From NCBI GenBank assembly GCA_963717145.1, contig OY970325.1, positions 4,288,001 through 4,352,000 on the forward strand: 64,000 bases of DNA. The letters run 5' to 3'. The stretch is from an uncultured Armatimonadetes bacterium. GTDB lineage: Bacteria; Armatimonadota; UBA5829; DTJY01. Made by a program: the position numbers and the translations under genes. This document shows, piece by piece, positions 4,737 to 54,065 of this stretch (the stretch's first letter is position 1; every line of letters begins with the position of its first letter). The notes below the pieces were generated by a model. That model saw only the letters and a list, made by a program, of their open reading frames with translations. It was not told where the DNA came from and did not search any database.

Positions 4737-4824
<88 letters not shown>

Positions 4825-6364: not shown

Positions 6365-7858
6365 GTGCAACCAACAAATTCCAGACAACCGGAACGACCA
6401 GGGAGGCGTGGAAGCGATTCACAACGAGCCAACGGAAGCCTAAGCAGCGCAGTACCGCGCGGTCCGTGGTGGATCGGATATGTGGTCACGCTTGCCCTCG
6501 AAGCCGTGCTCACGGTTGGTTTGCTCGCATTGTCGCCTCTCTTCCCACTCGCCAGGTTCCCGATACCTTACGTCCTGCTGATCATGCTCGTCGCCTACGT
6601 TTTCGGCGAGGGACCGGCGCTCCTGGCGTTTATCCTGGGCCTCTTTGCCTTCGATTACTATTTTGTTCCTCCTGTCGGCACCTCTTTCCCACACGCAGAG
6701 ACTCCGGAAGGGTGGGCCGCACTCGTCGCTTTCATGCTTGGAACCCTGATAGTCGGGTTCGCAACTGTGCTCATGCGCAGGTCGAGGCAGCGCACGGAGC
6801 AGATGGCTCGGTCGCTGCACCAAAGTGAGTCGGATCTGAACAAGGCTCAGGCCGTCGCGCATGTGGGAAGCTGGCGGCTCGATGTGCGGCGTGACGAACT
6901 GCTTTGGTCTGACGAGGTGTACCGGCTCTTCGGCATTTCCTCGGGGACGTCTCTGACCTATGATGCATTCCTGGCTGCCGTTCACCCGGAGGACCGGGGT
7001 TTCGTCGAAGCCGCCTGGCAGGCGGCTCTCACGGGAAAGCCATACGACGTCGAGCACAGGATCGTCACTCCTGAAGGCGTCAAATGGGTCCGCGAGCGAG
7101 CCGAACTCGAGTTCGACGATCAGGGAGCGCTGCTCGGTGGGTTTGGGACCGTACAGGATATCACGGAGCGCATGGAGGTCCAGCGGCGGGAGCGCGACTT
7201 GGAGGAGCATAAACTGGAATTCTACCAGCGCACACTACAGGCGGCGACCAGCGGCAAGCTCATCGTTACGGATCGTGAGAGGATCGAGCAACTGGCCGGC
7301 CCTGCTTCGGCAAGATGGGAGGTCAGGGAGCCGCGCGACCTCAGCCGAATCAGAAACGAGGCGGCGGACCTGGCCGGAAACCTCGGCATGGATGAGTCGA
7401 GGATCGGGAAGTTCCAGGTGTGCGTCGGGGAGGCTACCACCAACGCTGTCAAGCACGCGGAAGGTGCGATCGCCTCGTTGCACGCCAATCACGACTCGCT
7501 CATCTTCTTTGTGGCCGATACAGGCCCTGGAATCGATGCCGTGATCCTGCCCGATGTTGCTCTGACACCCGGATTCTCCACTGTCGGAACGCTGGGCATG
7601 GGGTACAAGGTCATGCTCTCGTTTGCCGACAAGGTCTATCTAGCCACGGATCCGGACGGCACGGCAGTCGCCATCGAGATGATGTTCCGGGTCCCCGAGT
7701 CGAGTCCACTTCTGTCCGGACTTGCATTCCCGGCGGTCGGATCGGCGAGTGATCGCTATGGCCACCGACCGAGGCGAGTTCATATTGACAGCGGTGGAAC
7801 TCGCCGACAGACTGATCCAAGGAATGGGCTATCTGCATCGAGAAGGGGAAGGCAATGA
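6365..7858 (+). CDS. Membrane sensor: DUF4118-like TM domain + PAS + HATPase_c (RsbW-like anti-sigma kinase type)
   Basis: TM block with FDYYFVPP; PAS (AHVGSW...WSDEVYRLFG...VHPEDR, GTVQDITER); EATTNAVKHA, D.GPGI, G.GY; start codon uncertain. Confidence 0.8.
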   Translation: MQPTNSRQPERPGRRGSDSQRANGSLSSAVPRGPWWIGYVVTLALEAVLTVGLLALSPLFPLARFPIPYVLLIMLVAYVFGEGPALLAFILGLFAFDYYFVPPVGTSFPHAETPEGWAALVAFMLGTLIVGFATVLMRRSRQRTEQMARSLHQSESDLNKAQAVAHVGSWRLDVRRDELLWSDEVYRLFGISSGTSLTYDAFLAAVHPEDRGFVEAAWQAALTGKPYDVEHRIVTPEGVKWVRERAELEFDDQGALLGGFGTVQDITERMEVQRRERDLEEHKLEFYQRTLQAATSGKLIVTDRERIEQLAGPASARWEVREPRDLSRIRNEAADLAGNLGMDESRIGKFQVCVGEATTNAVKHAEGAIASLHANHDSLIFFVADTGPGIDAVILPDVALTPGFSTVGTLGMGYKVMLSFADKVYLATDPDGTAVAIEMMFRVPESSPLLSGLAFPAVGSASDRYGHRPRRVHIDSGGTRRQTDPRNGLSASRRGRQ

Positions 7859-8226
7859 CTGCTGAGGGAACATCCGGCGGAGCGCAGGTCGTGAGCGTCT
7901 CCGGCGAGATTGACTACTCGAATCTTGACGGCTTCTCGAAGCCTGTCGATGAGGCGGCGAAGGTTTCGCCCGCCGGTTTCATCATCGATCTCTCAGAGGC
8001 CACCTACCTCGACAGCGGCGGAGTGGCAGTCATCATATCGGCCTATCAGCGCATATGCCCCGAAGGAAGACTCGTGCTGGTGGTCGCAAACGACAACATC
8101 AGGGATCTCCTGGCCCTGATCCACCCGGAGATGCTTCCCAATCTCTTCATCCGCGAAGACCTCACATCGGCAGAGGCAGCCCTAAATGCCGACGACGGAT
8201 CTCCTCGCTCGCGATCCAGTCCTTGA
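7855..8226 (+). CDS. STAS-domain anti-sigma-factor antagonist
   Basis: VSGEIDY, IIDLSEATYLDSGG motif with phosphorylatable Ser; ATGA overlap with upstream kinase. Confidence 0.9.
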   Translation: MTAEGTSGGAQVVSVSGEIDYSNLDGFSKPVDEAAKVSPAGFIIDLSEATYLDSGGVAVIISAYQRICPEGRLVLVVANDNIRDLLALIHPEMLPNLFIREDLTSAEAALNADDGSPRSRSSP

Positions 8227-8250
8227 CTTTTCGCCGCTTTGTGGTATAAT
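8223..8250 (+). promoter_or_regulatory. Sigma-70-type promoter for GH3 gene
   Basis: TTGACT-N16-TATAAT. Confidence 0.6.
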
Positions 8251-8299
8251 GGGGCAAGTCAACAAGCCTCCCCCCACAAACTGTTGCAAAGGCATTAAA

Positions 8300-10564
8300 A
8301 TGAAACCCTACCACGTGCTCTCTGCCCTGTTGTCGGCTGTCGTACTGCTGTCTCTGTGCTCGACCTGCTTTGCGGGTAGCCCCGTTTCCTTTGAAGGGAT
8401 GTCCGTGACCGCGGCGTTTCCGGGAAGGATCTACATTGAGAAGTCTGACCGAAGCCAGGGGATCCGAGTCGATACGCCCGGGATCTTCGCGGAGGGAGCC
8501 GTCGTCAACGTCTCCGGCACGCTGGAGATCGATCCCGTGACGGAGGAGCGATATGTCGCACCGTCGGCCGGGTATCCCCAGGCCACCGGAGCCACGCTCG
8601 TCCTCAAGCCGCTGGGAATCGTCGGCCGCGCATTTGGCGGAGGCGACTCGGCGATCCACGGAGGAATTGCGGGCGACTCGAACCTGAATAACGTCGGCAT
8701 GCTGGTCACAATCTGGGGGCCGGTGTCGGCGTTCGATGACCCGGTGAAACCCGTCAGTTGGTTCAAGATCAGCGATTCCCTGGGGCCGGAGATCAAGGTC
8801 GTCTGTCCGAGCGGCGTCAAGATCGACGTGGAATGGGCATATGTCGTCGTCACCGGGATAGCCTGCGTCGAGAAGGTGGGCGGATCGAACGTCCGGGTGC
8901 TCAAGGTGCGCAAGCCGAGCGATGTCGTCTCACGGCAGTCCTGGTCGGGGAACCGGCTCAAGTCGATGACCCTCGATGAGAAGGTCGGGCAGCTCTTCCA
9001 AGTCCGAGTCGACGGCGACACGCTCGAGGCATCCGAAATCAGCCTGGTCACCGACAAGCATGTCGGCGGCATAGTCTATTTCCAGTATAACGGCAACCTC
9101 AACGATCCCATGCGGTCGGCGCAGATGAGCAACGACCTGCAGGAGTACGCGGTCGGGCCGAGCGGCACGGGAATCCCGCTCCTGATCTCGATGGACCAGG
9201 AAGGCGGCCGAGTCACGAGGATCACCGGCGGCGCCGAGGGGCCGGGCAATATGGGGCTCGGGGCGTCGAGGAATACCGCACTGGCATACTCGATCGGCAG
9301 CATATTCGGTGAGGAGATCAAGGCGGTCGGCGGCAACATGGACCTCGCGCCGGTCCTCGATGTCAACAACAACCCGTCGAACCCGGTCATCGGCGTGCGC
9401 TCGTTCGGGGAGGATCCTGACCTCGCGTCGGAGATGGGACAGTCCTATGTGGAGGGCCTCCACAGCGCGGGCGTGATCGCAACCGGCAAGCATTTTCCGG
9501 GCCACGGCGACACCGCCGTCGACTCGCATTCCGGCCTTCCGATCGTGACCTACGATTTCGCGACCCTCGACAATATACATGGCAAGCCATTCAGGGATGC
9601 GATCGCGAACGGGCTTCAAGCCATCATGACCGCTCACATCGTCGTCACGTGCCTTGATCCCGATCGTCCGGCCACGCTCTCGCCCGCTGTTATGGAAGGC
9701 TACCTCCGCGGCAACCTGGGGTTCAACGGAGTGTGCATGACCGACTCGATGGGCATGGCGGGGATCACCTCGGGGTACGGCATCGGGCAGTCCTCGGTCC
9801 TGGCGATCAAGGCGGGCGTGGATCTCCTGTCCCTGTCGCCCGACCTCAATACCGCGATCGACGCTATCAAGGCGGCAGTCCAGAGTGGCGAGATACCGAT
9901 GTCCCGCCTAAATCAGGCGGTCGAGCGTATTCTCGCCCTGAAGCATCGGAATGGGATCTTCGCCAACCCGTATGTCGATCCGGCCGCCGCGGATGCGATC
10001 GTCGGAAGTACGGCTCACTGGAACGCCGAGTCGGCTGCCGCGCGGTCCGCGGTCACACTCGTCCAGAACACGGGCAGCATCCTGCCGTTGACCCTGACTC
10101 CGAGCCAGAAGATTCTGCTGGTGACCGTCGAGGGAGCTGAGACGACCACCAACGCCTCATCGCGATTCGCCTCATACATCACTGCGAAGCATTCGAACGT
10201 CCAGTCGCTCCCCTTGGTCGTGAACCCGAACTCCTCGCAGAGGACGACCGTCAAGAATGCGGCGGCGTCGGCATACGTGACCATAATCGGCACATCGAGG
10301 GCTCAGCTTTCGTCGAATGTGGGCCAGGCGACGCTGGTGAACGAGCTTCGGGCGCTAGGACGACTGGTGATCGTCGTCGGCCTGAGGGAACCGTATGAAC
10401 TGGCGAGCTTCCCGACGGCAAATGCGTACATTGCGGCGTACAACTACCGGAATTGCGGGTTCCAGGCGGCGGCGGACGTGCTCTTCGGCGATGTGAATCC
10501 ATCGGGCGTGCTCCCGGTCACGGTTCCGGGACTCTATGCGTTCGGCTACGGCCTGAGCTACTGA
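8300..10564 (+). CDS. Secreted GH3 beta-N-acetylhexosaminidase with an extra N-terminal ~190-aa domain
   Basis: Signal peptide; DQEGGRV, APVLDV, RSFG, KHFPGHGDTAVDSH (NagZ-type), TDSM; GH3 C-terminal domain. Confidence 0.9.
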   Translation: MKPYHVLSALLSAVVLLSLCSTCFAGSPVSFEGMSVTAAFPGRIYIEKSDRSQGIRVDTPGIFAEGAVVNVSGTLEIDPVTEERYVAPSAGYPQATGATLVLKPLGIVGRAFGGGDSAIHGGIAGDSNLNNVGMLVTIWGPVSAFDDPVKPVSWFKISDSLGPEIKVVCPSGVKIDVEWAYVVVTGIACVEKVGGSNVRVLKVRKPSDVVSRQSWSGNRLKSMTLDEKVGQLFQVRVDGDTLEASEISLVTDKHVGGIVYFQYNGNLNDPMRSAQMSNDLQEYAVGPSGTGIPLLISMDQEGGRVTRITGGAEGPGNMGLGASRNTALAYSIGSIFGEEIKAVGGNMDLAPVLDVNNNPSNPVIGVRSFGEDPDLASEMGQSYVEGLHSAGVIATGKHFPGHGDTAVDSHSGLPIVTYDFATLDNIHGKPFRDAIANGLQAIMTAHIVVTCLDPDRPATLSPAVMEGYLRGNLGFNGVCMTDSMGMAGITSGYGIGQSSVLAIKAGVDLLSLSPDLNTAIDAIKAAVQSGEIPMSRLNQAVERILALKHRNGIFANPYVDPAAADAIVGSTAHWNAESAAARSAVTLVQNTGSILPLTLTPSQKILLVTVEGAETTTNASSRFASYITAKHSNVQSLPLVVNPNSSQRTTVKNAAASAYVTIIGTSRAQLSSNVGQATLVNELRALGRLVIVVGLREPYELASFPTANAYIAAYNYRNCGFQAAADVLFGDVNPSGVLPVTVPGLYAFGYGLSY

Positions 10565-52713: not shown

Positions 52714-53007
52714 CGTGATTCCTCCTTTGCCCGTAAGAGTTCACTATCGTCAGGCTGGAGCACATCGAGGCAGGTCCCGGGGGTTGGGGAGACCAGGTAT
52801 TATTATAGCTGTTTGCCGCCAATAAGTCAACACGAAACTTGCTTGATAGCATCTGTCATTCGGGGCAGGTCACTGCCCCGCAAGCGCGATCTCCAGACGA
52901 CTCCGTCGTCGGTCGCCGGCCCCGACGACGGAGTCGTCTGGGGATCGTGTCTTCTTGGAGTTACAACTGTGCTTGGGAGGCTGTATTGCGCTGCTGAGAA
53001 AGCCCCC

Positions 53008-53122
53008 ACCGTCAGTCCTGAGTTCGCCGGTGAATGACGGCGTGTAACGAAGGACGGCTCGGTGCAGCAAGGCCGTCCTTCGTTACACGCCGTCATTCAC
53101 CGGCGAACTCAGGACTGACGGT
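53008..53122. repeat. Palindromic doublet family D, copy 3
   Basis: As copies 1 and 2, with mirrored variants. Confidence 0.92.
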
Positions 53123-53231: not shown

Positions 53232-53247
53232 TGGCACGGAACTTGCA
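53232..53247 (+). promoter_or_regulatory. Sigma-54 (-24/-12) promoter
   Basis: TGGCACG-GAAC-TTGCA matches the TGGCACG-N4-TTGCW consensus. Confidence 0.7.
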
Positions 53248-53257
53248 GGTATTCCTA

Positions 53258-53365
53258 CCGGTAAGCAACATCTCTTTCTCCAATCTTACCACGTTTACGT
53301 GCCCGGCATGGCTAGGTCCTGTGGCACGCAGGCCCGTTGGCTCAATAACCCAGCGGGCTTTTTTT
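53258..53365 (+). ncRNA. Candidate small RNA (three hairpins, intrinsic terminator)
   Basis: Lies between the sigma-54 site and terminator; stems GGTAAG/CTTACC, CGTGCC/GGCACG, GCCCGTTGG/CCAGCGGGC + T7. Confidence 0.55.
53332..53365 (+). terminator. Rho-independent terminator
   Basis: GCCCGTTGG-loop-CCAGCGGGC followed by TTTTTTT. Confidence 0.8.
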
Positions 53366-53380
53366 CGTCTCCGCCAAGGT

Positions 53381-53409
53381 TTGACATCAGGGCGTTTATC
53401 CGGTATCAT
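53381..53409 (+). promoter_or_regulatory. Sigma-70-type promoter for bioY
   Basis: TTGACA-N17-TATCAT, then GGAGG RBS. Confidence 0.65.
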
Positions 53410-53452: not shown

Positions 53453-54065
53453 ATGGCCGGCGATGTAAGAGGATACGCATACCCGAGAACCCGGGTTCAA
53501 AGTAACATCATCAAGTCACTGATGTTTGCGGGTGTCACCGCCGTGAGCGCCCAGATCGCAATCCCCCTGGGATTCACCCCCGTGCCGATCACACTCCAGG
53601 TTTTCGGCGTGCTGCTGTCAGGATTGGTGCTCGGCAGCCGATGGGGCGCCATCAGCCAAATGCAGTACCTGGCGCTCGGCGCGATGGGATTCCCGGTCTT
53701 CGCCGGATTGTCGGGCGGACCGACCGCCTTCTTTGGGCCGTTCGGCGGGCTATCTCGTCGGCTTTGTACCCGGGGCGTTCATCGTGGGATGGGCGTTCGA
53801 GCGGATGGGGGCCGGAAGTCGCTTCGGCGCATGGGTTGCCGGGATCGCAGGTGTCTGCGCCATCTATCTCTGCGGCGCATCATGGCTGGCGGTCTGGTTG
53901 TCGATGTTCTCCTCGAAGGGCCTCACGCTCCATGCCGTCTGGGCGCTGGGAATCGCGCCGTTCATCGGGGTCGATCTGCTGAAGGCGATCGCGGCTTCCG
54001 GGTTGGCCGTCGGGGGGCGCGCCGGCCGCGGGCTGATCCGCTCGTTTGGCGCGTTCGAGCATTGA
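53453..54065 (+). pseudogene. bioY: Biotin transporter BioY, frameshifted near 53741-53749
   Basis: PVPITLQ.FGVLL.G.VLG..WG, Y..LG..G.PVFAG; continues in another frame as GYLVGFV...PFIG.DLLK; may be a sequencing indel. Confidence 0.8.

Follow-up and report, generated by a model that had tools for sequence, protein, structure and literature searches.

A putative sigma-54-dependent small RNA upstream of bioY in Armatimonadota, with a seed complementary to translation starts of PEP-CTERM genes

CcsR, or cuckoo, RNAs are repeated small RNAs that carry pyrimidine-rich anti-Shine-Dalgarno (SD) loops and are processed out of one transcript. The RNAs described here differ from them in motif (CCUCCUCCC) and in that every Armatimonadota copy is equipped with a promoter and a terminator. 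A closer parallel in transcription is offered by Qrr1-4/5 of Vibrio, which the available part of PMC2632942 describes as homologous sibling RNAs that depend on sigma-54 and a response-regulator activator, are assisted by Hfq, and target a master regulator such as HapR. The present locus likewise has a sigma-54 -24/-12 site in a genome with RpoN, and assistance by Hfq is predicted; however, the predicted target is a surface-protein family, no Rfam Qrr match was found, and the candidate activator lacks a helix-turn-helix (HTH) domain and scores 383.5 bits against a LuxO cut-off of 800. In copy arrangement the family resembles LhrC1-7 of Listeria monocytogenes, which are multi-copy, partly tandem, 105-121 nt long and under two-component control, and which pair with the ribosome-binding sites (RBS) of the lapB mRNA, encoding a cell-wall-anchored adhesin, and the oppA mRNA (PMC8079631, available part). 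LhrC is controlled by LisRK or sigma-B, not by sigma-54, and has no sequence or Rfam match to the Armatimonadota RNA, which has a single seed running from the SD through the AUG and exosortase substrates as its predicted targets. GcvB silences ACA translation enhancers (PMC3879156, available part); similarly, in families f3 and f4 of the present RNAs a GU-rich extension complements CA-rich (ACA) stretches just before the SD, whereas the bioY-linked copy lacks the extension, and promoter type and targets differ from those of GcvB, to which no Rfam match was obtained.

Regulation of PEP-CTERM genes, as it appears in print, is transcriptional, through sigma-54 with PrsK/PrsR (Haft et al. 2006, PMC1569441, available part), and the term 'small RNA' has 0 occurrences in that paper. 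The PEP-CTERM/EpsH regulon described there has in common with the present genome an exosortase and sigma-54 sites before PEP-CTERM genes, but Haft motif 1 and PrsR are proteobacterial and no shared upstream motif was found here; the two activators covered by a TIGR02915 (PrsR) scan, from which the flagellar-cluster one was left out, score 401 and 400 bits against 502.6. Activators with receiver and AAA+ domains and no DNA-binding domain are known as group 5 enhancer-binding proteins, such as FlgR and CtcC (PMC7175178, available part). The candidate activator here has the same architecture, but scores 339.7 bits against the FlgR cut-off of 750, is also below the AtoC cut-off, and is predicted to serve PEP-CTERM genes and sRNAs, a separate HTH-bearing activator being present in the flagellar cluster. 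A Desulfovibrio study reports an sRNA controlled by a response regulator and also a PEP-CTERM regulator, with no connection between the two in the available part of the source (PMC3333781). A literature search, with most subscription journals and supplements outside its scope, returned no description of the sRNA family reported here, nor any sRNA family for the phylum Armatimonadota.

Anatomy of the bioY-linked locus

The window, i.e. the whole stretch of 64,000 nucleotides that was analysed, corresponds to C1:4288001-4352000 of the genome G000, which is one 5.37-Mb contig; the promoters, the RNA with its parts and bioY lie on the plus strand. A sigma-54 -24/-12 promoter sequence, TGGCACG-N4-TTGCA, is located at 53232..53247, and shows little or no variation among 40 aligned copies. 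Column counts taken from copies that were picked by the seed pattern are biased by that choice, and the filter removed the bioY-linked copy as well. G000 contains 20 such sites against 0.58 expected under an order-2 model, and alternative spacers of 2, 3, 5 and 6 nt yield 0, 1, 1 and 0 sites. Sigma-54 geometry would place the +1 of the transcript at 53258-53260. The predicted small RNA (53258..53365, ~107 nt) is a long, three-hairpin form, defined by its fold and by orthologs in G001, G005, G006 and G010; it scores 46.5 bits with the family model, in whose training set it was included. Positions 53258-53370 (113 nt) fold into the three hairpins at -36 kcal/mol (z -2.34), with 5 of 200 shuffles equally stable.

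In hairpin 1 (53260..53290), a 6-bp clamp GGUAAG/CUUACC holds the seed in a 19-nt loop (53266-53284). The 13-nt seed (53269..53281) is the exact complement of an SD (GGAG), an AAAGAG spacer and AUG. After it, the bioY-linked copy has AA where the family conserves UU, so that pairing amounts to 13 bp and not about 16. The mean unpaired probability of the seed is 0.87-0.96 in two long-form orthologs, and across the four orthologs 91.7% of the cells of hairpin 1 are paired, with 1 two-sided change. Hairpin 2 (53298..53328), also supported by fold and orthologs, has 95% of cells paired and 2 two-sided changes; its loop motif UGGCUAGG is invariant in 5/5 long-form copies. The element ends in an intrinsic terminator (53330..53365), again seen in fold and orthologs, with an 11-bp stem (53330-53360) running into U7 (53359-53365); the U-tract is likely also the Hfq-binding 3' end. 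The stem is absent from the list of a terminator scanner, because its 9-nt loop exceeds the 8-nt limit of the tool. The four plus-strand start codons within the element give 3-44 aa, the three longer frames reading through the terminator, and no SD-like run was found in the 14 nt before any of them. In contigs of four public DNA runs, related strains show 0-2 substitutions over 53258-53365 and 0 in the hairpin 1 loop, and the loop letters are therefore no assembly error. The public runs listed for the stretch include no RNA run.

A separate sigma-70 promoter, TTGACA-17-TATCAT (53381..53409), lies outside the RNA and precedes bioY (53453..54065, Pfam BioY), which encodes the S component of a biotin transporter and is split over two frames. 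All four long-form orthologs retain this order of elements, from the sigma-54 promoter through the hairpins and the terminator to a sigma-70-like site and bioY. Contigs from three runs are one base shorter at 53741, near the frame break of bioY, and the split is probably an assembly error or strain-specific. Frameshifted PEP genes also occur elsewhere in G000 (e.g. C1 4054387, 4055493 and 3714901). An earlier note on this DNA had read a consensus -24/-12 site, ~108 nt with no credible ORF, an intrinsic terminator, three hairpins of which the first (GGTAAG/CTTACC) presents a loop complementary to RBS regions, and an independent bioY promoter past the terminator, all of which the present analysis recovers at the positions given above.

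Upstream of the RNA, the window contains two inverted repeats, a perfect one of 51 bp and another of 26 bp (53008-53122 and 52887-52947), which recur genome-wide at about 105 and 27 places, respectively, occur at very high depth in metagenome contigs, and are likely MITE/REP-like. They were considered as part of the RNA and rejected as high-copy genomic repeats that are absent before the orthologs shown.

Searches of the whole window with Rfam 15 returned only a tRNA gene with a long variable arm (4737-4821, plus strand). The element itself yields no family at either gathering or E-value thresholds, its best overlap being anti-hemB (12.7 bits against a threshold of 49.5), and for ten loci of the family the best scores were suhB (26.9 vs 41) and NmsRb (27.2 vs 52).

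Several features by which an Hfq-dependent trans-acting sRNA is recognized were found together at this locus: an own promoter, a terminator with a U-tract, no conserved ORF, a conserved and accessible seed complementary to mRNA starts, and an Hfq gene in the genome. The stretch 53258-53365 is very probably a real sRNA gene. The earlier proposal of an undescribed sigma-54 trans-acting sRNA with an exposed anti-RBS loop is supported by RpoN (two genes in G000), by Hfq, by the conservation of promoter and hairpins in relatives, and by the lack of an Rfam family at threshold. Beyond that proposal, sequence comparison indicates that the RNA belongs to a multi-copy, class-wide family, that its loop spans the start codon as well, and that the matching starts are mostly those of PEP-CTERM genes.

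Family distribution and the sigma-54 machinery

G000 contains five copies, at C1 3764492+, 3764905+, 4125874- and 4126070- in addition to the bioY-linked one. The shorter sisters are ~65-70 nt long, often tandem at distances of 135-200 bp, and all have a promoter, seed and terminator of their own. A DNA search of 61 genomes gave matches in 6 of 10 same-family genomes, four of which carry the long form; the remaining matches were shorter sisters. In the four long-form sequences 94.4% of cells are paired and three pairs are changed on both sides, a number reached by 6 of 500 shuffles; this lends the predicted stems modest covariation support, from few related sequences.

A strict pattern occurs in 23 of 47 genomes of the Armatimonadota class and in 0 of 354 of other classes, with 0 matches for a reversed control. 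A pattern match in G008 is ascribed to chance, as it has neither terminator nor model match. With a promoter+seed model built from 40 copies, and at least 35 bits taken as a full match, 34 of the 47 class genomes have the family, or 35 with G037, added by inspection. Copies are absent from all five class genomes that lack PEP-CTERM genes, which are also without an RpoN over the cut-off, and, by the same model, from seven PEP-positive class genomes. Extra weak matches in G012, G035 and G006 (C41) were discarded as chance. Across 185,579 species genomes a scan picked up 21 stretches, of which 11 belong to entries named Armatimonadota/Armatimonadetes, 8 to entries named only 'bacterium', and one each to a Deltaproteobacteria MAG and Calothrix. 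The Calothrix match, which has no G+C-rich terminator, was treated as chance. In the Deltaproteobacteria stretch (L022 601-700, minus strand) the layout is the same, with a sigma-54 site, a UCUCC tract rich in U, and a terminator, which makes it a possible analog outside the phylum.

Related arrangements were also observed. Seed and terminator stand behind non-sigma-54 promoters at L062, L063, L088, L089 (family f3), L082, L084, L086 and L087; four of these loci share a GGAAC...CGTATAG arrangement, which we take to be ECF-like, and an extra CACCUCCUU tract that resembles the 16S tail. Another family of sigma-54 sRNA-like elements, ~105 nt long (G000 C1 1523043+ and 3591340-; L360 and L361; also in G001 and G006), combines a UUUUCUUCUU tract with a GGCUAC loop that is similar to hairpin 2 of the bioY-linked RNA. 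Further orphan sigma-54 sites with non-coding DNA downstream lie at 2151822, 4067746, 3605552 and 441196 in G000.

One of the two rpoN genes of G000 sits, together with an HTH-bearing activator, among fliG, flgB, flgC, fliE and fliF, where the promoters end in TTGCT. The promoter class that ends in TTGCA precedes the sRNAs and 12 PEP-CTERM genes. A second activator (3047972-3049174) consists of receiver and AAA+ domains without an HTH and adjoins a GAF/PAS kinase; the run C1 3046621-3052405 holds the kinase, this activator and a receiver-PilZNR-PilZ protein, which suggests a link of the cluster to c-di-GMP. Orthologs of the HTH-less activator (over 500 bits) are present in 38 of 47 class genomes, absence of the HTH being a statement about G000 only. 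The sRNA family occurs in 34 of the 38 genomes with the activator and in 1 of the 9 without it (G019, 88% complete). The complete genome G008, with 30 PEP genes and a flagellar-scoring RpoN only, has neither activator nor sRNA family. This co-distribution among kin leads us to infer that the sRNAs are activated by the HTH-less activator with the non-flagellar RpoN. No shared enhancer motif was found upstream of 24 sigma-54 promoters of G000 and 56 of relatives, as is expected because the activator has no HTH. A third sigma-54 activator, NtrC-like and with an HTH, lies near the contig start (C1 ~7700-9400, L040) in DNA whose G+C content is 63-66%, where the genome as a whole averages 61%; the region may be foreign or a misjoin. 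Hfq was identified with an Hfq model in G000 and, in total, in 46 of 47 class genomes; the LSM model PF01423 gave no match in G000 and missed the E. coli Hfq control as well.

Complementarity of the seed to PEP-CTERM translation starts

Target searches in G000 used 4232 genes called by a simple caller of our own, 55 of them labelled PEP-CTERM by motif; 46 Pfam PEP-CTERM domains are over the cut-off, and an exosortase is encoded. Uninterrupted Watson-Crick complementarity to the seed over 12 nt or more was found in three of the 43 PEP-CTERM genes that lack a sigma-54 site, in none of the 12 that have one, and in one of the 4177 other genes. This last is a 95-aa PEP-CTERM remnant, the first member of an FGE-like PEP gene array. 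The three others are intact (98801, 163311 and 1934929) and pass Pfam PEP-CTERM; their products gave no mutual BLAST match, and two of them are weakly similar at the N-terminus to the product of a fourth PEP gene. In an accessibility-aware scan the top eight comprised three intact PEP genes, three broken PEP genes and two other genes; PEP-CTERM genes made up 13 of the top 50, and other signal-peptide genes 10 against 9.1 expected. Among genes whose GGAG stands at -10..-7, the spacer consists of purines throughout in 8 of 11 PEP genes, compared with 8 of 265 other genes. A 40-nt duplex scan with the bioY-linked copy, in which bulged G+C-rich matches dominate, placed 0 PEP genes in the top 50, and was superseded by the seed-only and accessibility-aware scans. 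PEP genes with and without sigma-54 sites differ in seed pairing in G000 at p 0.002-0.017, or p 0.07 with paralogs collapsed. An 'on/off switch' between the two groups was considered and rejected, as the split was not replicated in G016 (7 sigma-54 genes), G006 (4) or G017 (1).

Outside G000, the exact 13-mer target site occurs 70 times. Eighteen occurrences overlap known copies, and the 52 that were examined consist of 18 antisense to copies, 11 that open ORFs of less than 90 aa and 23 that open longer ones. Among these 23 ORFs (at least 90 aa), 11 are PEP-CTERM, one of them frameshifted, and 12 are not. In families f3 and f4 the seed is prolonged by GUGUUGUG, and the predicted two-part duplexes have energies of -21 to -38 kcal/mol. 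ORFs behind CACAACAY..GGAG are PEP-CTERM in 10 of 19 cases in f3/f4, five of which represent one FGE-like subfamily, and in 0 of 12 in f1 (G000 left out), f2 and f5. The CA motif is present in 7 of 28 PEP leaders in G016, 1 of 89 in G008, G017 and G006 together, and 1 of 24 in G041; it is also present in 6 of 55 PEP leaders of G000, where FGE-like leaders carry it, though the five G000 copies are without the GUGUUGUG extension. At G000 C1 1018300-1024800 and 4050200-4057000, PEP-CTERM genes with an FGE-sulfatase domain stand in tandem arrays, and their CA-rich leaders are nearly identical.

Seed and site variants were also compared. In genomes with a C-variant seed (G000, G006 and G007), the exact sites that lie at PEP or likely-PEP starts are G-type in 6 cases and A-type in 2, and in genomes without it G-type in 0 and A-type in 8. 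The pattern is post hoc, it rests on kin, as does the CA extension, and its p of 0.007 is too optimistic for that reason; G037, with a G-type site and neither seed variant, was excluded from the comparison.

Limits to the targeting claim come from unbiased sets of PEP starts, 24-30 for each genome, drawn from its best 30 loci. The median pairing energy with the consensus seed is -13.3 and -14.7 kcal/mol in the RNA-negative genomes G008 and G041, and, for genes without a sigma-54 site, -13.8, -13.3 and -13.2 kcal/mol in the RNA-positive G017, G016 and G006. Seed-type start sites are thus not depleted in G008 and G041, where they are equally purine-rich. Only sites of -21 or better differ: G006 has 7 among 29 starts and G000 has 7 among 55, compared with 1 of 30 in G017, 0 of 28 in G016, 1 of 30 in G008 and 0 of 24 in G041. 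The enrichment of PEP genes has z -8 with controls matched for SD strength alone and is gone (z -1.0) with controls matched for SD strength and purine content; therefore the class-wide signal is the purine-rich spacer, and this spacer may be older than the RNA.

These controls bear on the strongest rival explanation, that the RNA is a genuine sigma-54 sRNA acting as a generic anti-RBS regulator with other or mixed targets, PEP genes ranking high through their strong purine-rich starts. The loss of enrichment in the purine-matched control and the equally good PEP starts of RNA-negative genomes speak for it, and non-PEP genes of G000, among them a cysE-like one (2649876) and 2668083, score as well as PEP genes once G-U pairs are allowed. 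However, all four perfect matches in G000 are PEP-type, the all-purine spacers are concentrated in PEP genes there as given above, no non-PEP gene recurs among the exact matches in relatives, and the family is missing from 5/5 PEP-less genomes (which also lack an RpoN over the cut-off). On balance we regard a generic anti-RBS regulator as rather unlikely, yet as a reading to be taken seriously, and consider it probable that translational repression of a PEP-CTERM subset, of the Hfq-dependent type, is the main job of the bioY-linked RNA.

Proposed role and remaining alternatives

Two further explanations deny pairing in trans, and both seem quite improbable to us. The RNAs could be protein decoys, of the Csr/Rsm or CrcZ kind or titrating Hfq or S1, whose copy number sets the dosage without base pairing; the several near-identical short copies would suit such a role, and so would the conserved loop motif of hairpin 2, which is otherwise unexplained. 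Against this, the bioY-linked RNA contains 0 GGA, where Csr/Rsm decoys have multiple GGA loops, each RNA has a single motif without repeats, and the conserved part is an exact anti-SD/spacer/AUG with correct spacing. No greater probability attaches to the second explanation, that the element is a PEP-CTERM leader relic in inverted orientation, or serves bioY in cis or as an insulator, with no functional RNA acting in trans. It draws on the f3/f4 copies, which match FGE-type PEP leaders in mirrored form over about 30 nt, on the bioY synteny kept by the long form, and on the CT-rich insulators known in sigma-54 promoters (10.1101/086108, available part). Against it, the copies all have their own promoter and terminator, lie in unrelated neighbourhoods and are often tandem, the stems show three two-sided changes in four sequences, and bioY has a separate promoter past the terminator; an insulator works at most 25 nt upstream of the SD on a read-through mRNA, whereas the seed is ~165 nt from the bioY SD, behind a terminator. 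Least credible of all is a minus-strand short peptide ORF using the strong SD and the AUG spelled by the seed, for although an SD-spacer-ATG is there and opens 62 aa at the bioY-linked copy, other copies give 5 to 70 aa with neither length nor sequence conserved past the first codons, and promoter and U-tract point to the plus strand in all copies.

Returning to repression of PEP-CTERM mRNAs, we propose that the HTH-less response regulator and the non-flagellar RpoN would switch on transcription of the sRNAs. Such an activator would require no enhancer, which fits tandem copies that are only 135-200 bp apart. The ~107-nt RNA, with Hfq, would then pair over the SD, spacer and AUG of mRNAs from a PEP-CTERM subset, and this pairing over the start site would block the translation of those surface-protein mRNAs. 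In this scheme a single signal would increase one group of surface proteins through the TTGCA promoters (12 PEP-CTERM genes) and decrease another through the RNAs.

More tentatively, a surface-proteome switch may operate across one class of Armatimonadota, in which the activator would induce an exosortase-substrate set together with sibling sRNAs, and the sRNAs would silence PEP-CTERM genes that share an RBS 'address', i.e. a signature common to the RBSs of otherwise unrelated PEP-CTERM genes. Seed and address would co-evolve, as the C/G versus U/A variants and the GcvB-like CA-enhancer extension might reflect, and the seed would have been rewired to other promoters. We hold this wider scheme to be possible and, on present evidence, doubtful.

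Occlusion of RBSs by sibling sRNAs is in itself a well-known mechanism. What the bioY locus contributes is the long, bioY-linked form, the link to an HTH-less activator, and the negative controls that bound the targeting claim. PEP-CTERM proteins form large surface-protein families in many environmental bacteria. If the proposed role is true, their control would include a post-transcriptional layer, in which dozens of sequence-unrelated paralogs would be controlled together via a start-site signature, and the RNAs would be the first sRNA family found for their phylum within the literature searched.
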